Position numbers and translations under genes: made by a program. Below, one piece after another: positions 32,721-61,146 of a stretch of 64,000 nt of DNA. Under the pieces are notes generated by a model. It had not been told where the DNA came from. It was given only the letters and a program-made list of their open reading frames with translations, and made no database searches. The DNA is from Tubulanus polymorphus (taxonomy: Eukaryota > Animalia > Nemertea), in NCBI RefSeq assembly GCF_964204645.1, contig NC_134027.1, positions 17,260,560 to 17,324,559 of the forward strand, given 5' to 3'. Numbering within the stretch: position 1 is the stretch's first letter; each line of letters opens with the position of its first letter.

Positions 32721-33109
32721 GCTCGTTTTTACGATGCCGCTCGCTGGCGCCGCCTCACTTCCGAGTGAGCGTTTTCGCGGTGGTGCGGTTTACTCCGGTT
32801 TATTTTTTAGTAAATATCTCCGTATCGGTCTTATAGTCGTCATTTTTCGCGTTAATCTTAAGATATTATAGAACTTAATTCTATTTCTCGCGTATGAAGT
32901 CTTTATTTAGCGTTTTATCATTCGTCACGGTCGAATGATTTCGCGTGCCCTACTTTGTCCGCGGAGCGTATAAACTGCTCGTCACGCTTGACCAATCGCC
33001 GCGTGCGTTGACCGCATGAAAACTATAAATTTAGCGCAATGGCGCTCATTGGCAACTTGGCTCTGGCAGAGCCACATTAGAAACTCTTTCTTGCTACTTC
33101 TTCACCGTT

Positions 33110-33881
33110 TTACGAATCTGGACTACTTTCTGAGACCAATCGCGAGTCGAGTATCAACATACATCCAAGATACTAATGACTTTCTCAACAAAGTCAACTC
33201 CCTCCCTCCCCTCAACAAAGATGCGATATTGGTGACAATGGATGTCAAAAGTCTATACACCAACATTCCCCACGGAGAAGCCATCAGTAGCATCCTAAAG
33301 AGTCTAGATGACTTCCCGCTACAATACGCACTACGCACAATACGCACGCACAATACGCCGTCCAGACAAAAGACGCTTCGTTCAATTCCTGAATCTAATA
33401 CTGAAGAGAAATGAATTCTCTTTCGGGAAAAACGAACACCGCCTTCAAATAGAGGGTTGCGCCATGGGTTCGACTGTCAGCCCGAGTCTAGCGATCATAT
33501 TTATGCATTATCTCGAGACTAAAGGTATCCGCTCGGCACCGAACAATACTATACCCATGTTATATTGGAGATATAGATGATATATTCTCAATCTGGACCC
33601 ACAGTGAAGATAAACTACTCGAATTTTCCGAACATATGAACCAATCACACCGTACAATCCAATACGACACTGACACAATCAAGGGTACTCATTTTGATTC
33701 AATTTCACTGATCACCAAATACCATCCGAACACGGATAATATCCGTCAGTCGCTTACAAAACACTGGGAAATAATCCAATCGAACGCGACTCTGAGAATA
33801 ATATTCAAGGAACCTCCCAGAATATTATTCACACGCGGCAAAAATCTTAGAGACATTCTAGTCCGCGCGAGATGTGTGTAA
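33110..33881 (+). pseudogene. Penelope-like retroelement RT fragment, internally deleted
   Basis: YIQDTNDFL, LVTMDVKSLYTNIPH, GCAMGS, YWRY-DDI, and the linker TKYHP...KHWEIIQ...GKNLRDILVRA. Confidence 0.85.
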
Positions 33882-33944
33882 AGCACACCACCATCTCAAC
33901 TTCAATACCGTAATAATAGTCGGTTTATGTGCTTCATACGAATC

Positions 33945-34263
33945 AGTAATTAGAAGATGGCGTTTTCATACCAGAGGTCGAGAGGTCGAGACACCACTCA
34001 TCACAGCTAGGTTCTAGTGAGAACGGACGATTGCTCTGTGATGCACATATACAGTGAGTGCGCGTAACGACAACTGCGCGTGGATAGATAGATACAGTGA
34101 GTCGCTACCGAGAACGGTTATCAACGCGTGTGCTATAAATGTAGTACAGTGATTGCGTGTCAAGTGTGCTCGGATAAATAGATGCTGTGAGGCTTGGGTG
34201 AGAACGGTTAATAGCGTGCTTGTTATATACAAGGGGAAGTAATCCCCACTCATCACCACAAGT
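33945..34263. repeat. Left TIR of element B
   Basis: Reverse complement of 49701-50019 with about 8 mismatches by eye. Confidence 0.97.
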
Positions 34264-34724
34264 TATTTGTTTTCCTTATAAATGGGAGAGAATAAGACAG
34301 AACAAATTGATGTTAATGAAAATCAATATTATTGTCCATATTGTAAAAAATACATTGATAAATCTCAAAAATCGCGTCATGAAAAATCTTCAAATCATAT
34401 AAAAAATGTTATAGATTTTGAAACTTCAGAAAATTCCAATGAAAGAAAAGAACGATTAGAAAATATGAACGTGGATGAAATAAAATGTGAAGTTTGTAAT
34501 GAATTTATAGTAAAAAGGAATTATGATAGACATCTCGAATCACAAAAACACCATCAAAATTTGAGTAATAATGTTTTAGGAAAAGATTATTTCGATGATA
34601 AACCTCAAAAAGTAAAAAAACCAACTTCAAAAACTAAATCCATTTCAAATAAACCTTACATGGAAAATGTTAGAAATTATATTGATTCACTAGAAATAAA
34701 AGATACAATTGAAATATTAGAAAC

Positions 34725-35196
34725 TGTGAAGTCAATGTATATGTTATATGTAAAGTTATTTGTTTGTATAAAGTGTAACGGTAGTTGGTCGTTCTTTTGT
34801 TCGTTCTCTTGTCAGTATTCCAGTATTCTGTAGTATTGTGTTGTATTGTTGTTGTTGTCTGGTATTGTTATTTTCCCGCCTCAAAGTTTATTGGCATATC
34901 CGTTTCCGGGTTACTCCCGCATTTTGTGTGATATTTTTGGCACTTGGTCGTTGGAGCTCCTCGGAGTATCAGTGCTTGTCTGTGTGCTTGCTATATTGGA
35001 ATCTCCCTCAGTCGTCATGTAAGTTTTGTACAAATTTATATAAATTAATTATTGTAACTGTTTACAACATTTCCTACCCTTATAATATTTGTTTTTGTAG
35101 AAACGTGTAATATTCGTCGTTTGTTTTTGTCGTCGTAATTTGAAAATAAACGCATCAATGAGAAGTATCGACTGACTTCGTTTGTCATTTGCAACA
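34725..35196 (+). mobile_element. 472-bp solo LTR inserted in pPolB
   Basis: TGTG...CAACA, 5-bp TSD GAAAC (34720-34724 and 35197-35201); removing it restores EILETLRSKIGPAA, matching ETFKSDIGPAA in fragment A1. Confidence 0.88.
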
Positions 35197-38100
35197 GAAA
35201 CATTACGTAGTAAAATTGGTCCTGCAGCTATTATATTTAGATATTTTAAAGGTACAACAATAGAAGATTATAGTAAATTTAATGAAATAATAGAAGAAAT
35301 ACTTGTTTTGATAACAGATGTTGAATATCCAAAAATTAGTATAATAATTTCAAAAACGCAAATAAAAGAGAAGTTAGAAAAAGTATTTAATGACTTTAAA
35401 CGTCATATTGAAGAAAGATATTTTGAGGGTCCTGGTTTATCATTAAATGAAATTATATTTTTAGATTTAAATGTTTATAATACAAAAAGGAATAAAACAT
35501 CAAAAAGTAAAACAATGTTTAAAAATGATTCAAACTTTACAACAGAAAAGGATATTAAAGCATCATCAGCAGTAATAAATGTTCAAAATGAAGATAATAA
35601 ATGTTTTCTATGGTCAATTATTAGTTGCTTACATCCAACAGAAGATATAACACATAGTTTTAGAATAACAAATTACCGGAAATATGAAACATTATATGAA
35701 ATTGATCAATATCCAGTAACTATAAAAATGATACCCAAAATAGAAAAAATTAATAATTTAAAAATAAATGTATTCGAATTAATGCAATTACCAAATACAA
35801 AAGGTGAAAAAATTAAAGATTATACATTGGAAGCTTTATATTTAACAGAATATTATGATGATAAAAATGCTATAGATTTGTTATATTACAAAAAAGATGA
35901 AAATGAACATTATATGTGGTTAAAACAAATTGATTTATTCTTTAGAACAGAAAGTGATTTTGACAGTCATAAAATTTATCTATGTAGAAAATGTTTATCT
36001 AAATTTAGAACTGAGAATGCGTTACTAAAACATAAAGAATTATGTGATAATAAAGATTTTTGCAAATTGATAATGCCAACAGAAAAAGATTATAAATTGA
36101 AATTTACTAATCATAAATTTAAAAATATTGTTCCATTTGTAATTTATGGGGATTTTGAATCGGTGAATAAAGAATTAACTGATCAAGATAGAAAAGAAAT
36201 ATATAACAAAAAGCAATTATTAAAATCAATGGATAAAGGAAATTAATTAAATGAAGACACAACACACGACCCGCCAATTATAAATACAATTAAAAAAGTT
36301 CATCAAAGAGCTGCTGCTTATGGAATTTATATAAAATCAAATTATCCTGAATAATATGAAAGTCAATATATTTCTTTTAGAGGTGAAAATGTAGTTAATG
36401 ATTTTTGTGAAAAAAATGATTGAATTAGAAAGTGATTTTGCAAAATTATTAAACAAAAATAAAAGAATAGTTATGACAAAAGAAGATGAAATTGATTTTA
36501 ATTATGCAACTCATTGTAGTTATTGTGAAAAACGTTTTTATTCATTTGATAAAAAAGTTAGAGATCATGATCATTTGAATTCAAAATATCGTGGAGCTGC
36601 TCATGAAGATTGTAATTTACAAGCTAAGAAAGTTAATTTCGTACCAATATTATTTCATAATTTATCAGGCTATGATACCCATCTATTTATAAAACAATTA
36701 TCGGGAAAATAGGGCGCAATTAATCAAGAAATAGAAGAATATAATGCTATGAATGGTGTAAATGTAAGAAAATATGATTTTAAACTATTAGCTAAAACAT
36801 CTGAAAATTATATTTCATTTCAATTTGGTTGCATTAGATTTTTAGATTCTTATAGATTTCTAGCAAGTTCATTAGATAATTTATCAAAAAGTTTAGTTGA
36901 TAATGATTTTGTTATAACTCGATATTATTACCCAAATGCACAAGATTTTAAATTATTGAGATATAAATGTGTAATTCCTTATTCATTTTATAAAACACAC
37001 AATGATTTTAATGTAACAGAATTATTAAAAGATCAATTTTATGATCAATTAAAAGAGGAGTATGTGAAAGATGAAGTGTTTAATAGAACATTAAATATTT
37101 GGAACCATTTTAAGATGAAAAATCATGGTGAATTAGTTGATTTATATTTAAAATCAGATGTTATGATATTGGCTGACATATTTGAAAAATTTAGAGAAGT
37201 TAATTTAAATCATTTTAATGTTGATCCTTGTTATTGCTACTCTAGTCCTGGTTTAACCTGGCAATGTGGTTTAAAATATACTAACGTAGAATTAGATTTA
37301 TTAAAAGAACCAGACATGGTTTTATTATTTGAAAAATCAATTAGAGGTGGAATTAGTGGTGTTATGGGAGATAGATATTTTAAAGCAAATGATGAATATA
37401 AATTATTATATATTGACGCCAATAATTTATATGGTTGGGCAATGATGCAACCTCAACCATACAAAAATTTTATATTGACAGAAGTTGAAAATGATGATAA
37501 AACTGATTGGGAAAGCGCAATTGCGAGTTTAAAAGATGAAGCACCAATTGGTTATTTCTTTGTAGTTGATTTAGAATATCCTGAAAATATAAAGTTTAAA
37601 ACAAGAAACTTACCTTATTGCCCAGAACATTTAACCGTAGATGATAGTTATTTAAGTGAATACCAGAAGAAAATAAAACCGAAAGATCATGTTTTTACAG
37701 AAAAATTAATACTTACTCAAAATAATAAATACAATTATATTGTTCATTATAGAATGTTGAAATTTTATCTAAAACAAGGAATGAAATTAAAGAAAGTACA
37801 TAGATATATTGAATTTAATCAATCGAAGTGGTTAGAAAAATATATAGATTTCAATACTCAACAGAGAACCATATCAAAAACAGATTTTGAAAAAGATGTC
37901 TTCAAATTAATGAATAATAGTTTTTATGGTAAAACATGTGAAAATATTAGAAATAGAAATGATATTGAATTAGTAAATAATTCTGAAAGATTAAGACATT
38001 TACAATCAAGTCCTAGACATTTAGGAAATAAAAGATTTGAAGATTATTTAACAGCAGTTAAATTAAAAAGAACGTCAATGAAATTTAATAAACCTATATT

Positions 38101-38209
38101 CATTGGTTCAACTGTTTTAGAAGTATCAAAATTATTAATGTATGATTTTTATTATAATGTTTTACAACCACTTTTTGGGGAAAAGCATATTGAAATATTA
38201 TATTTTGAT

Positions 38210-39284
38210 TCTGTAACAGCTGACACCCCAATATTATAAAAATGTAATGATAAAATATTGATAAGAAGAATTTCAGAAATAATTCCAAAACAAAATGAAT
38301 GTTATATTTCATATGGTGAAAAAGAATTAATACAAATAAATGGATAATTGGATGTTTGGACAAGAAATGGATGGAAAAAATTAAAGAATATTATTAGGCA
38401 TAAAACAAATAAGAAAATCTATAGAGTTAGAACTAAATTAGGGTTTGTACATGTTACAGAAGATCATAGTTTAATTAAACGAAATGGCGATGAAATAAAA
38501 CCAACTGATATAAAAATTGGAGATGAATTATTACATAAAAGATTTTTCCAAAGAATGAATCATATGTCATTTGATAAAATAATTGATAATATTTATAATA
38601 TAGAACCTGAAACATTAGAAGAAAAAGAATATTTTATCAAAGGATTTTTTATGGGAGATGGTTCAGCAGGTGTGTATAAATATGTTTGGGGTAATAAATA
38701 TTGTTGGTATTTATGCAATCAAGATTTGATATTATTAGAAAGAATAAAGAAATATTGTGAAGAAGTTTATCCAAATAAAACATTTAAAATCATGGATGTT
38801 ATGAAATCATCAGCAGATTATAGAATACTTGTAAATAATCCTAAAGATTTTGCTATAAAATATAATGATGAATTCTATATTCATGCAATAGTGAAAAGTA
38901 CTTCAACTAAATACTTCAACTAAAGAAAAGATAGTTCCAGATTATGTATTAAATGCAAAAAATAATTTAAGAAAATGGTTCTTCATTGGATTCTACGCAG
39001 CAGATGGTGCTAACAAATTTACAAAGGATAAAAAGAGAACCTTTGCACAGAAAGGAAAAGTTGCTATATCAGGGTTAAATATATTATGTAATTCATTAGG
39101 CTTCAATATGAATATTGGATTGATTAAATCTAAACCAAATTGCTTTAATTTAAGCCACACAGAAAAAGATTTAACTGAAGAAGTTAAAGATTTATTTGAA
39201 ATATATAACCCAACAGATTATGTTTATGATTTATCAACTGAAGATGGTACATTTAAATGTGGATTTCCATTAATTTGCTTCAAT
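38210..39284 (+). mobile_element. Intein with LAGLIDADG homing endonuclease, inserted in pPolB motif C (degenerate)
   Basis: Block A SVTADTPIL after YFD; block B VTEDHSL; block C GFFMGDG; block E GFYAADG; block F YVYDLST; terminal Asn before TDS. Two in-frame stops and a 13-bp duplication. Confidence 0.95.
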
Positions 39285-39736
39285 ACTGACAGTTACATAC
39301 TAAAAATCAAGACAAATGACATAACAAAAGACTTAAAAACATTAAAACATCGTTTTGATTTTAGCAATTATCCCAAAGATCATGAACTATTTAGCAATGA
39401 TACTAAAAAGATTCCTGGTAAATTTAAAGATGAATTAGGGGGTGATGAAATGATTGAATTTGTTGGGATAAGAAGTAAAATGTATAGTTATAGAACAAAA
39501 GATCATGAAGCTAAAAAGTTAAAAGGAATAACAAAACATGTGGTTGATAAACATATAGAATTTCAAGATTATATAAAGTGTTTATATAAATCAATTGTAA
39601 TGAAACATAAAATGAATTGTTTAAGATCAGAAGATCACGAGATGAACATTAATGAAGTTTAAAAATCTAGTTTGAATCCATTTGATGATAAAAGGCATAT
39701 TTTAGATGATGGTATAAAAACATTACCTTATGGTTA

Positions 39737-41074
39737 TTAAAACATAAAATCAATATCATCATACTCGAAATCACTATTGGTTTCTTCATTTTCATTTAAT
39801 TGTTCTTGTATAATTTGTTTAGGTTCTTCCATTTCATTTTTCTCATTTAAATAACGTGTTATATTGTGCCACATTTCATCTCGCTCTCCTTGTTTCTTTT
39901 TGTTTGTTAATTCATCAAATGGAATTATAATATCTATGTTTAAATAATTTACAATCTTATTTAAAAAGAATTCATAATTAATTGAATCTGTTATTCTATT
40001 TTCCAAATGATACATTAATATTTGTTTGAATATTTTTTTTATATTTTCCATATCTTCTTCTGTTAATTTAGGTTTTTCATAATAATCGTTAAATAATAAA
40101 TGTAAATACATTTTCTTTTGTTTTGTCTTTTGTTTTGTGTTAAATGTTGATGGAATAATTGTTTTCATTATATCTTTTTTAGTTATTTCACCATTTTTAT
40201 TTTCTATCATTTTAATTTTTTCAAGCGATTGCATATATTCTGGTGTATGATCTTCTATAGAAAATATTTTAAAGATTTCATCTAGATAATTTAATTTTGG
40301 TTCTATGAGAAAATCTCTAGTTTTTTCATCACCCCATAAATTCTTTTGCCATCCAAATTCATTACAAAATAACACAGTACCTTCTTGTCTTAAGGTCGCA
40401 TAATTACATTGTGGGCATTTTTGTTTATAATTTATTGGTTATAGATCTTCATTAAGCTCCTGGTATTTTCTTACGTTTTCTTTATGTTTTATTTTTCTAT
40501 TATGTAGATTTAAATTACTTGTTATAATAATCAATTTACAATATTTACAATAATATGTTTTTCTTGTTAATTCATTATATTGTTTTTCTAACTTTTCAAC
40601 TGTTTCTTTATTATCTGGTAACGTTTTCTCATATTTTATTTTTTCTAATATTTAATTTTTTCTTTCATTGAATTCTGCTTCAAATTTATTATAAATTTTA
40701 TCTATATGTACTTTACGAAATTGATGATTCTCCCAAGCTTCTATATTTTCAGGGCTATATTTTATTCGACAAGGCACACAGAAATGATATTTTATATTAT
40801 CCTTATCATAGAATAAGAAAGGTCTTTTCCAAATAATTTCAGGTTCAGTTTCAACAGAATTACTATTACTTTCGTTACTATCAACATTAACCGTTGTGTC
40901 ATTAATTTTACACTTCTCTGAATGTTTTTTAACATAAGTTCTTGAGAATAATTTATTACATTTTGGGCAGTTTATTTTAGGGGTTTATAATTTTCATCAT
41001 GTTTTTTCATGTCGAGCCATATTACTTTTTCTTTGAAGTTCACCATAAATTTCGCATGGTATCTTCTCATCCAT
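39737..41074 (-). pseudogene. Zinc-finger protein with C-terminal VLTF3-like (poxvirus A2-type) late transcription factor domain
   Basis: Several C2H2 fingers, then KCPQC...FCNEFG ribbon, PKLTEEDMENIKKIFKQI, SINYEFFLNKI, ERDEMWHNI; upstream part broken by stops and frameshifts. Confidence 0.65.
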
Positions 41075-41142
41075 TTATTTAGGAAAAATTTTATTAAAAT
41101 TAATTTTTAGTGATGAGCGGTAATTTTTTTATGTTATAAATA

Positions 41143-41896
41143 ATGGTAGAATTAAAAGAATACAGAATATTTAATCTAGAAAACTTACAAATTATAAATC
41201 ACATAATTTACTAGTACAATTAGATAGAGAATTTAAGAATTGTGTAGATTAAAATTAGTAAATATAAGTTTATGTAATTCTTTTTATAATGTAACGGATA
41301 AAAGTCTAGAACATTTAATTGTTTCAATCTTTTACAAAAAAATGAATAAATGGTTTTTTATATGTTCAAAACCAGGATTATATAATTAAGATACATTAGC
41401 ACAAGAAATTAATAGAAAAGCTCGAGCTAAATTAGGAAGTGATTCCGGATTTAGTATTAGAATTTTAAAAAGTGATAGTTCTAATAAAATAAAGATTAGG
41501 TAAGCTAATGACGAACAATTTAAATTTACAGTAAGAAAACCTTTAGGTAAACTGTTAGGAATTAACCCAGATATTGTTACAGCATACGCAGAGGGTAGAT
41601 CAAACTTAATACCTTACACACACTTCTATATTTATTGTAATTTAATTGATCCTACACAAACATTTGAAGCAACTAAAGATAAAACTTGCAATTCTAGTAT
41701 ACTAAATATTTTACCATTAAAAAATGTTAAACAATTTGGAACTCAAATAAATTATAATGTTACAGAATGTGATTTTAAACCTTGCATTCCGCATTTCAAT
41801 AATTTCAAATTAGAAATAAGAAATCATAATGGTTATTTAATTGATTTGAATAACTTTCCTGTGATATATGAATTAGTTATAAGATGTAAAGAGTAA
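41143..41896 (+). pseudogene. Putative minor capsid (penton-like) protein
   Basis: NSFYNV, KPGLYN, LGKLLG, FYIYCNLID, SILNILP, LEIRNHNGYLIDL...YELVIR: pattern typical of Polinton minor capsid proteins; internal stops. Confidence 0.6.
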
Positions 41897-41913
41897 TTTT
41901 TTTCACTATATAA

Positions 41914-42273
41914 ATGAATATAACTGTTGGACCGAGTATATGTTTTGGATTTGATTTTAAACGTGAGAAAGAAATGAAATTTAACATTAATGATGTAATT
42001 ACACATATTAAAAATATTGCATTTTCTAATGAAACAACATTTGAGTATGAAAAAACAATAGATAAAGAAACTTTAAATGTAGAAAAGATTACTAATTTAA
42101 TTAGAGAATCTTTAAGATTTTATGAATTAGATGAAGATTTTATCATAGATGATATTAAAAACATATTAACCAAAATATATGATAATCATAAAAGTAGTAA
42201 TGAAATAAATGTTCAATCAATCATCACTAAGATAACTAAATATTTTGAAGATTGTAATTTTTTTGATAAATAA
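41914..42273 (+). CDS. Polinton hypothetical protein, 119 aa
   Basis: Open ORF starting in TAAATG; its stop overlaps the next TAAATG. Confidence 0.6.
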   Translation: MNITVGPSICFGFDFKREKEMKFNINDVITHIKNIAFSNETTFEYEKTIDKETLNVEKITNLIRESLRFYELDEDFIIDDIKNILTKIYDNHKSSNEINVQSIITKITKYFEDCNFFDK

Positions 42274-42495
42274 ATGAGTGATAATAAGTGGATAATAACT
42301 GGATTATATAATGGAGCATTACTATCAGTTTGAACTGTTGGTTATTCCATGGTATTAAAAAAAGTATTTAAAATGGGAAGTGTTAATGTTGATAGATTTG
42401 ATATAAATGATATCTTAAAATTAACATTAGCAGTTACTTTATCCAATTTAACTATTGATTATTTGGAAAAACAAAAATATATTCCTCCCATATAA
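42274..42495 (+). pseudogene. Small hydrophobic Polinton protein
   Basis: TAAATG start, one internal stop, ends YLEKQKYIPPI; homolog at about 58348-58507. Confidence 0.55.
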
Positions 42496-42519
42496 AAGTG
42501 TAATTATTTTACTAAATAA

Positions 42520-42942
42520 ATGGCTTCTGCAATTATAACTATTATAGGATCGGCAATTGTTAACGCTTTAGCATTTACTGGTGGTGGATATTTATTTAAG
42601 CACATTGATAAAAATGGATCATTAACAGAACAAAAAAGACATAACTTAGCATTAGAGAAATACCATAAAGCAGCAGAAGAATATTGAGTAAATAGGCAAA
42701 ACTATATGGATTATATTAACAAGGAATTATATGATCAGAAGATTTCACATAGAGATTTTCAATCAGTCGATGATGCAATGAGTTTATATAACGCGGTAAC
42801 CAATAAAGAAAAATTACATCTACATAAACCTACAATATCAGATTATTATACCCCAAGTAAAGAACAACAGAAATATGAAATAATATGGATTTTAGGTGGA
42901 ACAGTTATTGTTATATTTGTAGCATATAGATTTACTAATTAG
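42520..42942 (+). pseudogene. Small protein with hydrophobic N-terminus, coiled coil and C-terminal TM segment
   Basis: MASAIITIIGSAIVNALAFTGGGYLFK...EQKRHNLALEK; one internal stop; homolog at 58528-58950. Confidence 0.7.
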
Positions 42943-42960
42943 TAATTTTTTTCTAAATAA

Positions 42961-43395
42961 ATGGAAGATAAAGTTGATAATATTGATATCATTCCTCATG
43001 ATATAAATAAAACTAAATTAAAAACATATTTAGAAAAACAAATATTAGAATTTGAAAATGATTTAAAAGTTAAAAAGAAAAAATATTTAAAATCTAAAAT
43101 TATATATTATTTTATTATTAGTGATTCAGTTACAATTAGTTCTGTAATAACATTTCTAGCAATATTCAGTCCATTAACACCTTTAGCTATATCAATTGGC
43201 GTATTAGGATTATCATCAAGTGTATTAACCAGTATAAGTTCAAAATTAAATATAAAAAGTAATAAAGAAAAAATTAAAACTAATATAAAAGAAATTAATA
43301 AATTAAAGAATACACTAGATTATATAATAAGTTTAAATGGCCATATAACAGCTGCAGAACAAGATAAATTATTGAAAGAATTAGTTAATTATTAA
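42961..43395 (+). CDS. Coiled-coil protein with two hydrophobic segments
   Basis: Open 144-aa ORF with TAAATG start; homolog at 60697-61130. Confidence 0.75.
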   Translation: MEDKVDNIDIIPHDINKTKLKTYLEKQILEFENDLKVKKKKYLKSKIIYYFIISDSVTISSVITFLAIFSPLTPLAISIGVLGLSSSVLTSISSKLNIKSNKEKIKTNIKEINKLKNTLDYIISLNGHITAAEQDKLLKELVNY

Positions 43396-43411
43396 TATTT
43401 TAATTATATAA

Positions 43412-44677
43412 ATGGTAGATAGTTTTCCAAAAGCTTTCCAATATAATAAATCAATTAAATATAAAATTCCTGCAATAGATTTTAATAAAGATATTTCATA
43501 TAGAAATGAAGATTTGAATTCATTAATTGATTTATATATTTATGTTACTGAAAGTAATAATTTTCATGGAAAGAAGGAAAATATATTTCATGTGTATACA
43601 ATTAATTTCAAAAATTTAAATGAGGCAGAACAATGGTTATTAAAATCTAATATGAAGTATTGGCAGAACCAATTAAATTTTGCTGTTTATTGCGCAACAA
43701 CAGGATGTGGAATTAGTTGGAATGATCATTTAAACAAACCAAGTTTACCATTAATTTTATCACTTTTTAGATTTCATACGTATTTTCAAATAAAATTGAT
43801 ATTAGATGAATTAGAATGTCCTTTACCAGGTTCAAAATATTTTAAAGAATTGAATAATAATATTAATTTTTCTAAGTTTTATAAAATATGTAATGAATTT
43901 AATATTAATTCAAATAAAGATTTTAGAGCAAAAATTGGTACAATGGGTGGATTAGGAATATTATATACTAAAGAATTTGGAAAAATAATGACAAATTCAG
44001 ATGTAAGAACACTGAATTGGAATGAATTACCAAAATATTATAATAATATACAACAACAAAACAATAATGGTTGGGTTAATTTCATTTTAGATAATAGTGA
44101 AGGTTTTACTAAAGCTGGTATACAAAGAATAAATCAATCTATTAGAACTTATTTGATATGTATTCTAGGTGCACAAGTTGAAACAAGATCCCCAATAATT
44201 GGAAATGATAACACTTCATTCGATGCGCAGAAACAATTTAAAGTTTTATTTGAAGATTCCATTCATAATGATAAAAATAGATCGATTCCAGAAAACATTG
44301 TGAGATATCAAAATTATTTAGATAAATCACATATTAGATTAAATTATTGTATAGGCCCTAATCTATTAATTATTTCTAATGATTTAGTACTAAAGATGGG
44401 AAACATAATTGGTTACAATAATCTAATTAAAACTGCAACAATAAATAATTCATTTGGATTAAATGATATAAATAAAAAGATTATTACTGCTCCAAAATTA
44501 ATGGAAGGCGAAAAAAATAAAAAACATATTCAATCAACAGAAACTAAAACTAAGAATATTGAATTAAATAATGATAATGATAATAATAATACTGATAATG
44601 ATAATAAATTCCATGAAAATACTAAATTAGCTTTAACCTGTATAGGAATTGTTATAGGAGGAATATTATATTTTTAA
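43412..44677 (+). CDS. Conserved Polinton protein of unknown function with hydrophobic C-terminus
   Basis: Open 421-aa ORF; YWQNQLNFAVYCATTGCGIS and GFTKAGIQRINQSIR are conserved in the homolog at 61147-63165. Confidence 0.8.
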   Translation: MVDSFPKAFQYNKSIKYKIPAIDFNKDISYRNEDLNSLIDLYIYVTESNNFHGKKENIFHVYTINFKNLNEAEQWLLKSNMKYWQNQLNFAVYCATTGCGISWNDHLNKPSLPLILSLFRFHTYFQIKLILDELECPLPGSKYFKELNNNINFSKFYKICNEFNINSNKDFRAKIGTMGGLGILYTKEFGKIMTNSDVRTLNWNELPKYYNNIQQQNNNGWVNFILDNSEGFTKAGIQRINQSIRTYLICILGAQVETRSPIIGNDNTSFDAQKQFKVLFEDSIHNDKNRSIPENIVRYQNYLDKSHIRLNYCIGPNLLIISNDLVLKMGNIIGYNNLIKTATINNSFGLNDINKKIITAPKLMEGEKNKKHIQSTETKTKNIELNNDNDNNNTDNDNKFHENTKLALTCIGIVIGGILYF

Positions 44678-44699
44678 TTTTAATTTTTTTATTATATAA

Positions 44700-46155
44700 A
44701 TGGATGTAGAAGGTGGAGAAGATATTGGAATGGATAATTTTGATGAACCCGGCATAACTGAAGAACAACCGCCTGATTTTAGTGAAACAAGTTTTAATGA
44801 CGGTAATGAGCCAGAATATAATAATAATTTAAATATGCCTGATTATATTAAAAATGCAGAATCACAATTAAATCCTGAAAATTTAGACCCAGATTTAGTA
44901 TAACAAGATTTAGATAATTTAAACAAAATACCTAAATTAGAACGAATAATTGAAAATTCTAAACTTAACATAAATGATGAAGACGTTGGACCTTTAGCAG
45001 ATCAATTAAAATTTTTAGATAATGGTAAATGGTATTATCATTTGAAAGGTGATTATTATATTGATATCACTTATAAAAATAATAAAAATAAAATATGAAC
45101 AAAATCAACTTTGAGTGATTTAGATCCAGATAGAATTAAAAGAATTAGTAATAGTAATGTAATAACTGATGTTATAAAACAAGAATTAACTGATAATGAT
45201 ATAGACGTATTTAAATAAAGAATTAATGAATTATTTGAAATAATCAAAAAGAAATCAGAAACAGAAACAACTTCTGAACAGAATATAACTTCCTAAACTA
45301 GTAAACTTAAATCAAATAAAGTTCCAATTGAAAAACTTTTACCGAATGGATTAATTGATGCAACAGATCAAGAATTAGAAGATTTAAATAATATATTTTC
45401 TGTTGAAGCAATTAGAGAAATTAAAAGTATAAGACTTGCATCTGATAAAATTTCGCATGATAAAAGTATAAGATATTTTAAAATTAGAACTTTAGAAAAA
45501 GAATTAACTGATAAAAATAAAGAAATAGAACAATTAAAGTCTGATTTAGATCATCAAGTAATTGATGAAATAGAATATAGGCAAAAAGAATTACGTTTAG
45601 AAAAAGAAAAAGATGATTTAGAATATAACATAGAATTACAAAAAGTAGAAATAAAATTATTGTTAAAAACATATGATTATAATATTAATAGATTAAAAGT
45701 TATTTTTAAAGATTTGTTGATTAAATCAGATTCTGAAATATCATTAAAAGATAGAATAAAGTTATTATTTAAATTAGAAGGAATAACAATTCTTTCAATT
45801 CTAACAGCTGTAACTATGTTATTTACAACAATTGGTTTAGCAATATCAAATGCTTTGAAATCTACTCCTACTCCCAATAAACCGGATAAACCCCCGAATG
45901 ATAATTCAATACAAGATAAAGTTAAAGATGGTTTAAAGAAAATATTTATGGGAACTATCTAAAAAATCTGCTGCAGCTTTACCAGGAATTATTGCATCAA
46001 TTGTTGGTTTTATATTGAAATCTGCAGGAAACATTATTAACTTTGCTGCTGAACATATTATTTTATTTTTAATTACAGTTGTAAGTGCTATTATTTTTGG
46101 GTTAGTGAATATGATATCAAAAAGATATCAAGAAAAAATAATAAAAAATAAATAA
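44700..46155 (+). pseudogene. Large acidic/coiled-coil protein with hydrophobic or amphipathic C-terminal helices
   Basis: Fragments 44700-44903 and 45660-45962, continuing AAALPGIIASIVGFILKSAG...HIILFLI; many stops. Confidence 0.6.
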
Positions 46156-46175
46156 TTAATTTTTTTGTTAAATAA

Positions 46176-47423
46176 ATGATTGGGAGTTATATAAGTCCTT
46201 CTAAGATTTCTAGAATATCTAATGCTATTAAAGCAGAAAGATCACATCATATAATTACTCATAACCCTTCTAATATTAATCCTGATGAAACTTTATATGT
46301 TAGAATTCCGAGATTAACACAAAATACTTTTTATGTTCCAAATAGTATTTATTTATCAGCCGATATAAAAGTAACTGGTCATGATAATAATTATGTTGTC
46401 GATAATGTTGGGAGATATTTGATTAAAAAATTAACTATATAGATTGGTCCAGAAACAGTTTTCTCATTAGATGATTATAATTTATTTATGCATTATAAAG
46501 ATTTATGGCTAACTAAAGAAAATAGAAATAATATGATATTTCAAGGAATCCAATCAGAAAACCATAATAAATTAAGATCAGGAGCTAAGAACGCAAAAGT
46601 AACTCGTGCCACAGATAATTTGATTAAAAAGATTTATGGAAGCAAATATAAAATTCCATTAGACTTTGAATTGATAAATAATATTGCCCCTTTATATAAA
46701 TATGTATTTCAAGGAGATATTATATTTGAGATAACATTTGCTCCTGTAAATGAAATTGTAATATCTAGCGTTGTTAAAGATATGGGTTATAAATTATCGA
46801 ATATATGTTTAGAATATGATACAGTAACTGATGAAAATATTTCAAGTATAATTCAAACTCAATACAATCAAGGATTTTCATTATTATATGATTATATTGA
46901 TAAATTTAAAACTGTAACTATTAATGCAAATGGTGAAATTATTAATGAGAATATTAACTTCCCAAGAAGATCTATTAAAGGTATATTAATATTTTTTACT
47001 ATTGCAACATATTCTAATGGCGCAATAAAGGTTGATAATTATTATAATCCTGAAATAACAAAAGTAGAAATAACTATCGAAGGAATAGCAAATAAAATAT
47101 TTTGTCAAGGAATGAGAATGATAGATCAGTGGCCAGAAATTAGAAAACATTTTATGAATGAAAAAGTGAAATCATCTGAAAATTGTAATATTAATCAAAT
47201 TGATTATTATACCGGCAATAAATATGCATTATGGTTAGATTTTAGAACAACAGAGGATAATTCATTACATGGTTCTGGGAAAAAACTACAGAACACAAAA
47301 GATGGAATACAATTATTCATGGCAAAGAAAATAGGAGACAAAAATTTTAAAATGCACATTTATATTATATCTGACGCACAATTAAATATTGTAAATTCAC
47401 AATTAGATAGTATTCAATATTAG
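46176..47423 (+). pseudogene. Putative major capsid protein (double jelly-roll)
   Basis: About 415 codons with one in-frame stop at 46440; beta-rich; NPSNINPDETLYVRIP, VGRYLIKKL, YKIPLD, YKLSNICLEYD, PRRSIKGILIFF pattern of invertebrate Polinton capsids. Confidence 0.75.
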
Positions 47424-47453
47424 AAATATAAAGTTAAAATTAAGGATATATAA

Positions 47454-47685
47454 ATGGGTGGTAAAAAAACTCCTAATACTAAAGAACAATATTTAAGAAA
47501 TTTATATTACAACCCTAAGAGTTCGGTCGCTTATTCTTCTACCAAAAATTTATGGCGTCAAGTGAAACAAGATAAATAAGATAAGATAATCCCACAAAAT
47601 TTAGTTAAATATAAAGATATAAATGAATTTATGTTAGAACAACCAACATACACAACACATAAAAAAATTGTTAGAAAATATATAT
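47454..47685 (+). pseudogene. N-terminal remnant of Polinton retroviral-like integrase
   Basis: LRNLYYNPKSSVAYSSTKNLW...INEFMLEQPTYTTHKKIVRKY; no DDE core follows. Confidence 0.7.
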
Positions 47686-47689
47686 TAAA

Positions 47690-48078
47690 CTTTAAATTTA
47701 GATAATTGTATTAAAATAGCAATAGATATTTATAAAGGATCAAATACATTATTCATTATAGATGATTGCGCAAATTTACATGATTCAAAAGTGAGAGAAA
47801 GTGAGTTATGTTATCAGGCTTTCTCTGGGAGACATTTTGGGATAACAACATGGGTTTTAAATCAAAAATATAATTCGATTGTTAAAGACTTTAGAGAAAA
47901 CATTAGATTTCTAGTTTTATTCTGCAATAAAGATAGAAAATCGATGAAAAATGCACTTGAGGAAAATGATATTATTCCACATGATTTACATAATGAATAT
48001 ATGGATAAATTGAAAAATAATAAAAGATCAAAATTACTATTTAGATTACAACACCCATTTAAATATGAATTTATTTAA
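47690..48078 (+). pseudogene. C-terminal half of A32-like packaging ATPase
   Basis: Walker B LFIIDD, SGRH, WVLNQ, FREN; no Walker A upstream. Confidence 0.8.
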
Positions 48079-48079
48079 A

Positions 48080-48355
48080 TTCAACTGGTTTGTTAATCTA
48101 GTTGAATTCTAGTAACATTCTAGTTGAATTCTAGTTATTAGTAGTTGAAACAAAAATCAAATAAAATTCAACAATATTTTAACTAGCTTGTTAATCTAGT
48201 ATAATTTTAGTTACATTCTAGTTGAACTCTAGTTATTGGTAGTTGAAACAAAAATCAAATAAAATTCAACAAGAAATAAATAAAAACAACAATATTTCAA
48301 CTAGCTTGTTAATCTAGTTGAATTCTAGTTACATTCTAGTTAAATTCTAGTTGCA
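48080..48355. repeat. Three about 100-120-bp repeats rich in CTAG and GAATTC short palindromes
   Basis: CAACTAGCTTGTTAATCTAGTTGAATTCTAGTTACATTCTAGTT repeated three times. Confidence 0.85.
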
Positions 48356-48384
48356 ACATCACAACAAATTTTTTTGTTATATAA

Positions 48385-49284
48385 ATGGGAGGTGAAAAGA
48401 AAATAAAATCTAAAAATGGTGATGTTCCAATTGAAAAAACTTAACAGAAACAAAATTAACTCCAGATGATGGTGCTTTGAATAATGTTACAACAAATAAT
48501 AATTATGAATATTATCTTTATTGTAAACATCAATTAGAAATATTAATATCATCTGGAAAATGTAAAAATTTTATCGGTAAAAATTTAACTTATAATGAAT
48601 TAGATACAATGAAATCAGATGAAATTATTAGATTATTTAAGACTTATGAAACCGCGAGAACAACTAGAATTAATGACGCGATCACAGAAAATGTAGTAAA
48701 AGGTTATAGTAAATTATGTAATTATATGCTGCCAATTCAAGAGGAAAATAGATTATATGCTGATTTGAAAAATGATTATTTAGTTATGACTGAATTAAAT
48801 AAATGGATTGGATATTTATCATTTCAATTAGGTGGATTTATGACATTATTATCAACTGGACTTATGACATTTTCAAATATTGAAAGTAAAAATATTTCTA
48901 TAATAAATGAACAAGGTGGAAGAAGTGAAGAAAAACCGAGATCACAGAAACAAATTGAATGGTCTCGGCAATTAGGAATTAAATCACAAGAATATAAAAA
49001 AGCTGTAAAAGAAAAAATAAGTAATAAAAATGTTAATAAAAATGGTGAATATTGTTATTTCTACTCCTTCTAATGATAGAATATTTGATAAATGTCAATA
49101 TTTTACAGTTGGATTTGTAATTGTATTCATTTTGATTGGGTGTAATTGGTATAAGAAATCAAATAAAATTCATGATATTAATAATTCTGAAACAACTGCT
49201 ATCAAAAATGAAAATACTTCTGAAATTCCAAAATTGATAATAAAAAAATGGATTAATATTTTAGATAAAAAGCAAAAAAAATAA
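48385..49284 (+). pseudogene. Two or more Polinton hypothetical proteins, frameshifted or fused
   Basis: TAAATG starts at 48385 and 48907; ORF pieces 48477-49073 and 49030-49284, the latter with a TM-like segment. Confidence 0.5.
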
Positions 49285-49406
49285 TTGAATATCTCACTAC
49301 TTTTGTCTATCTATGCGGGGCAATTAAATTGTCCAGATAAGTCATTTCGGATTCTAGATATCCATTATTTTTAATAATTTATTTTTTTAAATTTAATCAA
49401 CAATTT

Positions 49407-49690
49407 CTAAATCATGATGGCCATCTTCATTTTTCCATGATAGATTATTTTAAATCCTTCTAAATCTTTTAATTCCTCTGTACTCAATGAAACCCATTTA
49501 TCAGGTAAAAATACTTTAAATTCTCGCGATGTACTAACATTGCAGTAGCTTAAATTAGCTGATACTTTCTCTCCATATTTTGTTTTTATCTTTTCTAATT
49601 TCAATACTTTATGTTCAATTTCTTTTGTAACATCAACTAACTTTTTTATTTCAAATAGTTTTTTTGCTGGTTTTATTCTGTTATTTGTTG
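49407..49690 (-). pseudogene. Small basic terminal protein (TKYG...FLP family)
   Basis: KIKTKYGEKV...KVFLPDKWVSLSTEELKDL aligns with NKYGDRL...YLPDRFYGLSSEDLEEL at 57225-57566. Confidence 0.6.
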
Positions 49691-49700
49691 TTAAAAAATT

Positions 49701-50019
49701 ACTTGTGGTGATGAGTGGGGATTACTTCCCCTTGTATATAACAGGCACGCTATTAACCGTTCTCACCCAAGCCTCACAGCATCTATTTATCCGAGCACAG
49801 TTGACACGCAATCACTGTACTACAGTAATAGCACACGCGTTAATAACCGTTCTCGGTAGCGACTCACTGTATCTATCTATCCACGCGCAGTTGTTGTTAC
49901 GCGCACTCACTGTATATGTGCATCACAGAGCAATCGTCTGTTCTCACTAGAGCCTAGCTGTGATGAGTGGTGTCTCGACCTCTCGACCTCTGGTATGAAA
50001 ACGCCATCTTCTAATTACT
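49701..50019. repeat. Right TIR of element B
   Basis: Reverse complement of 33945-34263. Confidence 0.97.
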
Positions 50020-50838
50020 CGAATCCTTCAATCACGATTTATGCAAACTAAGGTGAAAACCGTTTAAATCAGTTTCCGTTCTGCTTATGTATAGACACTC
50101 TCCGGACTCGATATACAGCCGCTCGGACTGATGCTAAGGGCAGTCAATTTACTCCCGACGTGTCGTTTTATCAACATAACACTATATCAATGTTCGATAA
50201 CCAAGGAATACCTGGTCGAATCAATACCGCCCGGTGGTCACACACAAAAATCGGATCAGATCACATCAGATCGATGATTTTAAGAACCTCCTCAATCCAA
50301 ACAGATTGAAATATAGACGTAGTTGATACATACGCCGACAGATGATCGGTGCGATTACCCTCGCAACACCAACGGACCCTGTTTTGACAGGACGGAAAGT
50401 ACTCTCCACACGAGACGAGGAAAGCCCGTCCCACCTTTGCAAAAATCTAACATCCATATCGGTTCTCACCACTACCCGCCACTGTAAGGCCACGAATGTG
50501 TTGATACACACGCCATCTATCTGATTAGGCTATCACTACTATTCGCAATGACTTATAATATGGAACACTCATACACCGACGTCTGTTTATAATAAAAAGA
50601 AATAACACAATGTGTACCTCACATCTCAATATGAATTACTCAGTTTTATTTCTACTGTGAATATTAAAATTATTACATTGCTACACCCTCGTGAAACTGG
50701 CTGTGTTATTATAAGTATTATAAAATGATATTAGCATCTCTTTAGGTTAATACTAAATTGACTAGGTTAGTTAAAGTTAAAGAATTTTTATTCAAAATAT
50801 AAAGTATTCTCTTTTGAAAAGAATTGTAAAAGAAAATA

Positions 50839-57580: not shown

Positions 57581-58345
57581 ATGGCAGAATTAAAAGAATA
57601 CAGAATATTTCATTTCATTATTTTGATTCAAGAAGACTTACAAATTATAAATCACATAATTTACTTGTACAATTAGATAGATAATTTGAAAAATTGCGTT
57701 GATTTAAAATTAGTAAATATAAGTATATGTAATTCGTTTTATAATGTATCGGATAAAAGTCAATTTATTCTTTGATGATTCATGTAAGGAGAAATAATAA
57801 ATGATATCATCTATTTTTAAGACCAGGATTATATAATTTAGAGACTTTAGCGCAAGAAATTAATGGAAAAGGTAAAACAAAAATGAGCGCAGCTGCTGGA
57901 TTTGGAATTAAATTTTTAAAAAGCGATAATAATAATAAATTAAGAATTAAGTTAGCTAATGAAGAACAACATAAATTTATAGTAAGAAAACCATTAGCTA
58001 AGCTGTTAGGAATTACACCAAATAAACTTTATTCAAATGTTGATTCTACACCAAATATAATGCCTTTTACACATTTTTATATTTATTGCAATTTAATTGA
58101 TCCTACAAAAACATTTGAAGCAACTAAAGATACAATTTGTAATTCTAGTATATTGAATATTTTACCATTAAAAAATTTCAAACAATTTGGAACTCAAATA
58201 AATTATAATTTAGGTGAATGTGATTTTAAACCATGCATTCTACATTCTAACAATTTTGAATTAGAAATAAGAAATCATAATGGATACTTAATTGATTTTG
58301 ACTTTCCTGTAATTTATGAATTAGTTATAAGATGTAAAGATAAAT
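57581..58345 (+). pseudogene. Putative minor capsid protein (homolog of 41143-41896)
   Basis: High similarity, e.g. THFYIYCNLIDPTKTFEATKD and LEIRNHNGYLID. Confidence 0.6.
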
Positions 58346-58954
58346 TGACTGTTGGTTATACAATGGTATTAAAAAAGTATTTAGAACGGGAAGTATTAAT
58401 GTTGATAAATTTGATATAAATGATATTTTGAAATTAACGTTAGCAGTAACTTTATCTAATTTAACAATTGATTATTTTGAAAAACAAAAATATATTCCTC
58501 CTATATAAATGCATAATTTCTAAATAAATGGCTTCTGCAATTATAACTATTATAGGATCGGCAATTTTTAACGCTTTGGCATTTACTGGTGGTGGGTATT
58601 TGTTTAAGCATATTGATAAAAATAGTTCATTAGGAGAACAAAGAAGACATAATTTAGCATTAGAGAAATACAATAAAGCCGCAGAAGAATATAGAGAAAA
58701 GAGACAAAACTATATGGATTACATTAACAAAGAATTATATAATCAGAAAATTACACATAGAGATTTTCAATCAGTCGATGATGCAATGAGTTTTTAGAAC
58801 GCAGTAACAAATAAAGAAAAATTACATTTACGTAAACCTTAATTATCAGATTATTATACACCAAGTAGTGAACAACAAAAATATGAAATAATTTGGATTG
58901 TAGATGGAACAGTTATTGTATTATTTCTTGCTTATAAATTGACAAATTAGTAAT

Positions 58955-60674
58955 AATAATAATAATAATCTTATTTATATACCGCTTTACACTGCGTTTC
59001 AAGGCGGTTTACAATAATGAATACATTAAGATAATAATATAGTTTTAATAAAACATTAGTTATCATAATACTGAGTAAAAAGAAATGTTTTAAGATTGGC
59101 TTTAAAATAATTAATATCATCACTAGTACGTAAGGTTAAAGGTAGATTATTCCATAAAACAGGGGCAGCGCAAGCAAAAGCTCGATTACCGTAAAAAATT
59201 GTATTGCATGACACATGAGACAGTTTAAACATATTAGCTGACCTTAATGAACGATTCGGTTTGTACAGAGACACTAACTTGCTAAGGTAAGGAGGTGCTA
59301 GACCATGAATACATTTAAAAACCAAAAGTAAAACTTTGAATTGTATACGTTTACAAACAGGTAACCAATGTAAGCTAAATAAAACAGGGGTGATATGGTC
59401 ATATTTAGAACCTTGAGTAATTAACCTAGCTGCTGAATTTTGGATGGTTTGAAGTTTTGACATTTGATAATCTGTAATTCCAAGTAATAAACTGTTACAA
59501 TAATCTAGTCTTGACGGGATAAAACAATGATCACGCTTTTCAGTAGTGGCTGTATCGAGTAATGATCGAATTTTACTAATTCTGTATAATGCAAGTGATG
59601 CCACTTTACAGATATGTTTAATATGATTATCCATTGTCATGAAGCTATCAAAATAAAATACAAGGTTGCGTACTGTTGAAGAGAGAAATATTGTGGAATC
59701 ACCTACACATAATCCATTAAAAACATTATTCACTTTTCTGAATTTGGATGAGAATAAAATAACTTCAGTTTTTGAATCATTTAGAAATAAGAGATGATCT
59801 CTCATCCAAACACGTATATCCACGACACATTTTTCAATTATTGGTACAGCAGTATTTGGTTCCCTGCAGACCATGTATAACTGTGAGTCATCTGCAAACA
59901 ACATGTAATCCAAATTGTGCTTCTCTATTACGTCGGCAAGTGGAGCGGTGTAAAGGGTGAACAAGAGGGGACCTAAAACTGATCCCTGAGGGACGCCACA
60001 TAACAAATCTGATAAGTTTCCAACTTTTCCACTTAAAATACACTGTTGTTTGCGATCACTAAGGTAGGATTTGAACCAATTAAGTGCTACACCACTTACC
60101 CCAAAACGATGTTCTAATGTATGAATCAGAATAGAGTGGTCAATAGTGTCAAATGCAGAACTTAAATCCAACAGAACTAAAATAGTGTGATTACCCTTAT
60201 CTACAGATTGAAGAATATCATTAGAAACCCAAAGCAAGGCAGTTTCAGTACTGTAACATGCCCTGTAGGCAGACTGAAATTTTGTATAAAGGTCATACTT
60301 TGACAAATGATCATTAACCTGTTCAAAAACAAATTTTTCCAGTAGTTTGGCAGCAAAAGGTAAGTTTGACACAGGTCTATAGTTATTTAGAATATCAGGA
60401 TCAAGGTTAGGCTTTTTTATAAGAGGCCTAACTTAAGCATGCTTATATTCACTAGGTACTTCTCCAGTTATTAGAGAAAAATTTATAATTTTAGTGAGTG
60501 CAGGCGCCACATCATCCGTACACTTTTTAAGAATTGAAATGGGTATTTGGTCCAACTCACACTGTTTATTAGGCGCATTCAAAATTTTCTTTTTCACATC
60601 ATCAACTGAGACCTCGGAGAAACTGGAAAAACTATGGTCACATGGTTTTTCAGGTGGTAATGGTTGGGGATTAA
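58955..60674 (-). mobile_element. 5'-truncated L2-clade LINE inserted in Polinton A4
   Basis: RT motifs NYRPVSNLP, LDLSSAFD, GVPQGS, FADD and L2-type LHWLPV...FK; (TAA)n tail; TSD TAGTAAT at 58948-58954 and 60675-60681, a site that is single in element B (about 42940). Confidence 0.92.
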
Positions 60675-61146
60675 TAGTAATTTCTTTTCTAAATAAATGG
60701 ATGATAAAGTTGATAATATTGATATTATTCCTCATGATATAAATGAAACTAAATTGAAAATATATTTAGAAAAACAAATATTAGAATTAGAAAGTGACTT
60801 AAAGATAAAAAAGAAAAAATATTTGAAATCTAAAATTATATATTATTTTATTATTAGTGGTTCAGTTAAACAAGTTCTGTAATAACATTTTTAGCAATAT
60901 TCTCACCATTAACTCCTTTAGCTATATCAATTGGTGTGTTAGGGTTAAGTTCAAGTTTTTTAACTGGTATAAGTTCAAAATTAAATATAAAAAGTAACAA
61001 AGAAAAAACAAAATCTAATATAAAAGAAATTTATAAATTAAAAAATACACTCGATTATATTATAAGTTTAAATGGTAATATAACAATTGAAGAACAGGAT
61101 AAACTATTAAAAGAATTAATTAATTATTAATTTGTCAATTATATAA

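Follow-up and report, generated by a model that had tools for sequence, protein, structure and literature searches.

Inteins at motif C of family B DNA polymerases (PolBs), termed pol-c inteins, are known from archaea and nucleocytoviruses, among them those of Mimivirus (R322) and Heterosigma virus HaV01; the class 1 splicing chemistry used below follows the parts of Ogata 2005 (PMC549080) that were consulted. According to the sections of Gallot-Lavallee 2023 (PMC10710043) covered here, virus-like PolB inteins lie on nuclear scaffolds of Klebsormidium, Tetrabaena and Hondaea, an intein interrupts polymerase delta of Chloropicon, and in Anaeramoeba an intein has spread within the genome. Neither these sections nor the two supplements searched mention an animal or Polinton intein, and the consulted supplement of a 2018 survey (PMC5784728) counts 0 inteins in Metazoa. 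Polintons are characterised, in the portions of Jeong 2023 (PMC10748475) considered, by a size of 13-25 kb, long terminal inverted repeats and a target duplication of 5-8 bp; the terms intein and LAGLIDADG have 0 occurrences there. The part of Krupovic 2024 (PMC11071308) covered suggests that nuclease insertions in protein-primed polymerases (pPolBs) stem from intein invasions. The word intein does not occur in the part of PMC8502044 covered, and the corresponding parts of PMC12220804, PMC3671162, PMC5718144 and PMC2814812 have no bearing on Polinton inteins. In the full-text literature searched, no description of an intein in a protein-primed polymerase, a Polinton or an animal genome was found, in line with an earlier note on this DNA that knew of no such combination; subscription papers, InBase, Repbase/Dfam notes and bioRxiv supplements were outside the reach of the search.

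Here we analyse a stretch of 64,000 nucleotides from the nemertean Tubulanus polymorphus (contig NC_134027.1, positions 17,260,560 to 17,324,559), in the following called the window. Polinton polymerases of this worm carry, in hundreds of copies, a LAGLIDADG intein; as explanation we consider it probable that the intein splices itself out of the polymerase and moves into empty polymerase genes after cutting them.

The intein and its carrier element

Positions 38210-39284 of the plus strand constitute a LAGLIDADG intein, which reaches from Ser1 (N-terminus SVTADTP) to a terminal Asn and is flanked by ...HIEILYFD and TDSYILK.... The earlier note had described an insert between ...ILYFD and TDSY, at the pol-c site YxD/TDS of motif C, with Ser1, VTEDH, two LAGLIDADG motifs, the Asn and a +1 Thr; all of these were found on re-reading, as were the two point stops and the 13-base tandem repeat that breaks the frame, the latter with one mismatch. 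Only the proposed length of 354 codons has to be corrected, as natural unbroken copies in the genome have 355. Table 1 lists the features of the element; the window's own copy of intein and element is dead and defective.

Table 1. Features of the intein-bearing element; positions are those of the window.
Feature	Position	Strand	Remarks
Left target-site duplication CGAATC	33939..33944		same 6 bases flank the other end
Left terminal inverted repeat, begins AGTAAT	33945..34271	+	327 nt, 10 differences to the right repeat
Protein-primed DNA polymerase, pre-intein part	34282..38209	+	stops and frameshifts; Pfam DNA_pol_B_2, E 1.9e-16; 81-97% to sister copy
HNH/endonuclease VII-like stretch in polymerase	near 36476-36622	+	Pfam Endonuclease_7 below cut-off
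Intein	38210..39284	+	broken; stops 38237, 38345; frameshift near 38899-38924
Splicing block B, VTEDH (Thr-x-x-His)	38453..38467	+	T83 97%, H86 100% conserved in 183 related inteins
First LAGLIDADG motif GFFMGDG	38642..38662	+	closes model helix 136-150
Second LAGLIDADG motif GFYAADG	38988..39008	+	
Splicing blocks F and G (YVYD ... terminal Asn) plus +1 Thr	39219..39287	+	YVYDLS from 39219; Asn codon 39282-39284, then Thr; without penultimate His
Polymerase, post-intein part (TDSY...)	39285..39740	+	premature stop at 39660
Putative major capsid protein	46176..47423	+	one internal stop; 91% to 415-aa sister ORF, itself weak Capsid_N, E 0.014
Retroviral-type integrase remnant, first 76 residues	47454..47681	+	93% to rve integrase of sister copy
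A32-type packaging ATPase remnant, C-terminal part	47695..48078	+	Pox_A32 over cut-off; residues 76-200 of sister ORF
Right terminal inverted repeat, ends ATTACT	49693..50019	-	
Right target-site duplication CGAATC	50020..50025		

The residues of a class 1 intein are all present: S1, T83, H86, D337 (the Asp of block F), N355 and the +1 Thr. A penultimate His is usual in class 1 inteins and not obligatory; in the worm copies this position is occupied by Lys, Phe or Val, never by His, and among 229 relatives His occurs 115 and Lys 87 times. An unbroken copy exceeds the cut-offs of the NCBIfam intein N-terminal profile (32.7 versus 24.5 bits) and of Pfam LAGLIDADG_3 (27.7 versus 22.5), and stays under that of Pfam Intein_splicing (30 versus 35.8). 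Because profile matches lie over the cut-off and empty alleles of the same gene read an uninterrupted YFDTDS, the insert is not due to chance. The Hint fold, which according to the earlier note had to be checked, is recovered in the predicted structure of an unbroken copy (pLDDT 94.3, alignment of 69 rows), where a two-motif LAGLIDADG domain interrupts it; the top structural matches of the model in the PDB are intein endonucleases (PI-PkoII, the Pho/Tli VMA inteins, PI-PfuI, PI-SceI) and I-DmoI, and in BFVD they are PolB inteins from a phycodnavirus, Pandoravirus, Marseillevirus, Megavirus and HaV01. By its fold, its motifs and its precise insertion, the insert is a true intein.

Motif C carries the catalytic aspartates of the polymerase. 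As these reside in YFD-TDS, replication of the element would need splicing, and the splicing half would therefore stay intact. From class 1 chemistry we infer an acyl shift at Ser1, an attack by the +1 Thr and a cyclisation of the Asn, which would rejoin YFD-TDS; protein splicing of the worm intein is likely, and the purifying selection described below supports it indirectly.

The carrier element comprises 16,075 bp (33945-50019), bounded by 327-bp inverted repeats and the 6-bp duplication CGAATC on both sides. In sister copies, 21 ORFs were scanned and revealed an rve integrase with chromodomain (over cut-off), an A32 ATPase and a 415-aa ORF that is weakly capsid-like, whereas integrase and ATPase are both truncated in the window copy. 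Among these 21 ORFs and 30 ORFs of the window, there was no Pfam match to a maturation protease or minor capsid protein. With respect to size, repeats, duplication and the presence of pPolB and integrase, the carrier belongs to the Polintons, and its polymerase is of the HNH type; the earlier assignment to the protein-primed polymerase of an animal-integrated Polinton is corroborated by the DNA_pol_B_2 match, the inverted repeats and the target duplication. The window contains further mobile sequences. Remains of additional Polintons of this family are represented by structural-gene pieces (57581-63154) and by a more distant polymerase piece on the minus strand (1-1414, 43-59%); adjoining the element, there is a fragmented reverse-transcriptase-like sequence (32992-33881), which presumably resembles a Penelope element. 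Elsewhere, in a copy of subfamily E without intein, a hAT transposase splits the polymerase gene (L150:2670-4874).

The scanned assembly (268 Mb, 77 contigs) contains 39 matches to Wnt exons, with three loci on the window's contig; one exon on this contig is 100% identical to Wnt-7b-like of Tubulanus polymorphus, the next best match reaching 59%. The contig thus stems from the animal, a point on which the earlier note had made its reading depend. Raw DNA reads of a different study, filed under an identical coded label for the species, cover the intein; 42 of them continue as empty alleles at 38209, and 139 join the element end to many different flanks (agreement 0.43). The two stops and the frameshift in the window's intein and the truncated integrase would suit an artefact, be it a contaminating contig of viral origin or a single dead remnant; however, such an explanation is next to impossible in view of the target-site duplication, the copies on 12 large contigs, the Wnt genes on the same contig and the reads of the other study. 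As a separate observation, the genome harbours intronless divergent family B polymerase ORFs with frames of 992-2272 aa (L317/L318 on C2 and C3, L324 on C23, L326 on C8), which likely originate from endogenous large DNA viruses; the stretches read contain no motif C intein, and their PDB similarity to polymerase delta is weak.

Copies of the intein and lateral movement between polymerase subfamilies

A search for exact patterns in the whole genome found the filled 5' junction 278 times and the empty site 550 times, against 0 and 1 matches of the controls; 14 of the 15 empty loci read are polymerase genes with continuous YFDTDS. The search for intact and for intein-free pPolB alleles that had been recommended was thus successful on both counts, with hundreds of filled and empty copies. 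Among 460 protein candidates 150 were scored, and all 150 matches are 88-99% identical; they lie on contigs C1-C12 and two small contigs, nine of them in open frames of 1686-1690 aa. Both junctions are available for 39 inteins, a sample biased to the best matches; 12 of these are unbroken, each consisting of 355 codons (1065 nt), and all 12 have kept both acidic endonuclease motifs. In ten unbroken copies of polymerase subfamily F, pN/pS is 0.14 in the N-splicing, 0.29 in the endonuclease and 0.23 in the C-splicing part, which demonstrates purifying selection on the splicing and the endonuclease halves. Variation among F copies is strongly concentrated in intein codons 256-355, which span the second endonuclease domain and the C-terminal splicing block (silent differences 0.16 versus 0.05 in the remainder); these mosaic variants may recognise different targets.

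Subfamilies F and E of the polymerase are about 79% identical; the former is about 98% and the latter about 3% filled. According to subfamily-specific patterns, F has 225 filled junctions and five empty matches, namely four with F on both sides and one chimera; for E, 17 filled E-type junctions were counted versus about 550 empty ones. Intein-like sequence precedes all 17 E-type junctions, and among the ten with both ends in the stretch, nine have E flanks on both sides and one has F flanks. Nucleotide identity between F and E is 88% for the intein and 78-80% for the flanks (five E copies), and silent differences amount to 0.14 in the intein and to 0.36-0.41 in the polymerase (one unbroken E-background intein). 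The inteins of the nine E-background copies group in a single clade (support 1.0), whereas the flanks downstream of them are scattered among different empty alleles. As the intein diverged more recently than its flanks and the E flanks are scattered, it crossed after the F/E split and entered several E lineages. These data show that the intein moved laterally between F and E; this crossing likely occurred by homing.

An ancestral, vertically inherited intein, with empty alleles due to repeated precise loss and with little recent spread, would be in agreement with the existence of four empty F alleles and with the finding, detailed below, that intein identity tracks flank identity across HNH-type polymerases. 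For F versus E this reading is already contradicted, since silent sites have diverged about three times less in the intein than in the polymerase around it, and the placement of the P0007 intein (below) speaks against it as well; we regard it as very improbable.

Ordinary recombination also occurs, as the chimeric flanks of three loci (L090, L293, L303) show. The intein might splice and yet be moved passively, its segment being swapped without homing by recombination or template switching between Polinton copies that are integrated or replicate together: flanks and gene order are mosaic among copies, mosaicism extends to the final 100 codons of the intein (silent difference 0.25 versus 0.10), and at silent sites no co-conversion tract was found beside the insertion site between F and E (0.32 versus 0.25-0.55 elsewhere). 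However, an E-intein-E arrangement needs two crossovers hugging the site between genes that are only 79% identical, a single intein clade occurs in several E sublineages, the endonuclease part is under purifying selection with its acidic motifs retained throughout, and F is almost completely filled; passive movement is therefore rather unlikely.

Two candidate signals were discarded. An apparent rise in F/E identity over the 90 bases that precede the site, which had suggested co-conversion, vanished at silent sites. Escape of the target site was considered for a 24-base window with four common polymorphisms in 32 empty alleles, a value equalled or exceeded by 6 of 52 windows. The codons of Ser +3 are split between AGY and TCN (19 versus 12), as is 1 of 18 other Ser codons, in loci picked by pattern. 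Two other Polinton families likewise contain filled alongside empty alleles. One of them, the P0005 cluster of 136 members, is 90% identical, yet its filled polymerases (1537 aa) differ from its empty ones (1191 aa) at about ten residues to either side of the insertion; this pattern looks like co-conversion.

Under the homing explanation, which we prefer, the endonuclease would cut empty polymerase alleles and repair would copy the intein into the break, either while free elements replicate or from one integrated copy to another. In this way, it would have driven the intein near fixation in F (225 filled versus 4 empty alleles) and the intein would now be entering E (17 versus about 550). The missing penultimate His, the missing co-conversion tract, the ordinary polymorphism of the target site, the chimeric flanks and the unstable sister group (below) count against this explanation. 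For the more far-reaching statement that an active homing intein is sweeping through hundreds of germ-line Polintons, with F fixed and E being invaded, and that a Polinton-specific clade carries giant-virus endonucleases into animals and between distant polymerases, we see an even chance.

Relatives and origin of the intein

A search of longer proteins gave 316 matches among 6012 candidates, a search of proteins of the same length 28, and an exhaustive search 2104 at E 0.001; identities were taken from the best 120 of the 316, and the best 150 of the 2104 were listed. Among the matches listed, the best relatives of the intein sit in other protein-primed polymerases (64, 50, 48, 47, 46, 42 and 42%), followed by inteins of nucleic-acid-primed PolBs (up to 43%), among them those of giant-virus genome bins (42%). 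In 190 of 229 full-length relatives, the insertion lies at YGD/TDS of nucleic-acid-primed PolBs. The close match to the Mimivirus PolB intein, which the earlier note had stated, was not seen with the named mimivirid compared, Megavirus courdo11, whose PolB intein is 28% identical.

Ten pPolB inteins are monophyletic, both in a FastTree tree of 183 rows (support 1.0), from which 29 near-duplicates and all inserts longer than 420 aa had been dropped, and in an IQ-TREE tree of 56 rows (UFBoot 99). The polymerases called giant-virus-type in these trees are mostly metagenomic proteins. With 14 archaeal pol-c inteins as root (112 rows, three quarters of the more distant pol-c rows being omitted), the pPolB clade is nested among the YGD/TDS PolB inteins under nodes of 0.94, 0.99 and 1.0; on this phylogenetic placement among pol-c inteins, the worm intein is classified as a pol-c allele. 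In the midpoint-rooted tree of 56 rows, the clade is not nested. Its sister group differs between trees, and support for the deepest nodes of the ingroup is low (0.22-0.35).

The lack of a stable named sister, the midpoint root that puts the pPolB clade outside the rest, and the occurrence of the intein family in polymerase delta of Chloropicon (31%; PMC10710043) are compatible with a protist cellular polymerase as donor or with a flow from Polintons to large viruses. Against these options stand the nested position under the archaeal outgroup, the prevalence of the YGD/TDS site of nucleic-acid-primed PolBs among the relatives, the fact that the best named matches are giant-virus genomes, and two host polymerase loci (C9, C11) in which YGDTDS is uninterrupted. 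We judge a cellular donor or a reversed flow to be unlikely.

The earlier note had proposed that the intein passed from the polymerase of a large virus into this Polinton. Trees and structure matches support the derivation from a giant-virus-type PolB intein; a single step from a large virus to this Polinton is not supported, the nearest relatives being pPolB inteins with 42-64% identity. As these are the nearest relatives and the GC content of the intein (25%) equals that of the polymerase (24-25%), the transfer appears to be old and the intein to have a history inside Polintons. Consistently, intein and flank identities track each other among HNH-type polymerases (63 versus 56-59, 65 versus 69-71 and 77 versus 74-81%), pointing to a long residence. 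The separate comparison of intein and exteins that had been suggested uncovered two discordances, the one between F and E and that of P0007, whose flanks are 16-29% identical to other pPolBs (branch 3.7), yet whose intein nests beside that of the worm (UFBoot 100); we infer a second jump, to a distant polymerase group. Taken together, we envisage that the intein passed long ago, in a single event, from a giant-virus-type PolB to the polymerases of Polintons; the shared YxD-TDS motif would have enabled this event, which probably took place in a co-infected cell, not necessarily of an animal. A subsequent spread within Polintons would include the distant group.

Many fragmented copies, located on contigs of up to 1 Mb, suggest that the hosts of the other pPolB inteins are eukaryotic genomes. 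By best matches, no intein-bearing pPolB was found among 37 IMG/VR and 80 metagenome loci (nine IMG/VR junctions were read), and phages gave two weak matches only. A marine metagenome run (share 0.07, three short pieces) was not used.

Further members of the family were seen in other settings. In the P0316 cluster (55 members, at least 15 listed), which lies on contigs 19-825 kb long, the ORFs have 362-365 aa and consist of a whole intein of the P0005/P0006 subclade, preceded by about 11 and followed by 4-7 residues; they are possibly free-standing or ectopic intein copies of another genome. In P0027, P0100, P0116, P0118 and P0009, the same intein family occupies xD/TD sites of thymidylate synthase and type II topoisomerase, and therefore non-allelic jumps to similar motifs have taken place. 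Contigs binned as archaeal or bacterial (L234-L240) contain giant-virus-type PolB inteins (24-37%) and are likely misbinned viral DNA.

Significance and comparison with known systems

Filled, empty and cross-subfamily alleles in one assembled genome make the proposed homing cycle, with its stages of invasion, near fixation, decay and loss, measurable on hundreds of natural copies. The intein further marks the exchange of DNA, both of large DNA viruses with Polintons and among distant Polintons. This bears on the question of whether the Polintons of animals occur in the same cells as giant viruses, as is the case for virophages. If active, such copies would be new natural inteins and endonucleases that work in animal cells.

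The worm intein occupies the same motif C site as the inteins of Mimivirus R322 and Heterosigma virus HaV01 (pol-c, position III), and shares Ser1, Asn and +1 Thr with them (Ogata 2005, PMC549080). With nucleocytovirus and archaeal pol-c inteins it has in common Thr and His of block B, two LAGLIDADG motifs and a length of about 350 aa; its identity is 35-43% to the best giant-virus-type copies listed and 18-31% to the named ones in BFVD. In contrast to these, its carrier is a protein-primed polymerase, which is about 20% identical around the site, and it belongs to a separate clade with hundreds of copies in animal chromosomes. Compared with the HNH/VSR pPolB2 Polintons in the portions of Jeong 2023 and Krupovic 2024 considered, the carrier agrees in size, repeats, the 6-bp duplication, the HNH-like stretch, the rve integrase, the A32 ATPase and, by a weak match, the capsid-like ORF. 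The nuclease insertions of pPolBs are described there without splicing domains, whereas a complete intein resides in the active site of the worm polymerase. Hedgehog/Hint autoprocessing domains of animals have the Hint fold and a related chemistry; unlike the worm intein, they are without endonuclease, interrupt no host enzyme and have no empty alleles. The cases in the covered sections of Gallot-Lavallee 2023 share virus-derived PolB inteins in eukaryotic nuclear DNA and movement between paralogues; the hosts are algae and protists and the carriers giant-virus or cellular genes, whereas the carrier in the worm is a multi-copy transposon-virus. The worm intein is thus of a known kind, resides in a new class of host enzyme and is, within the literature searched, the first family of homing-type inteins from the nuclear genome of an animal.
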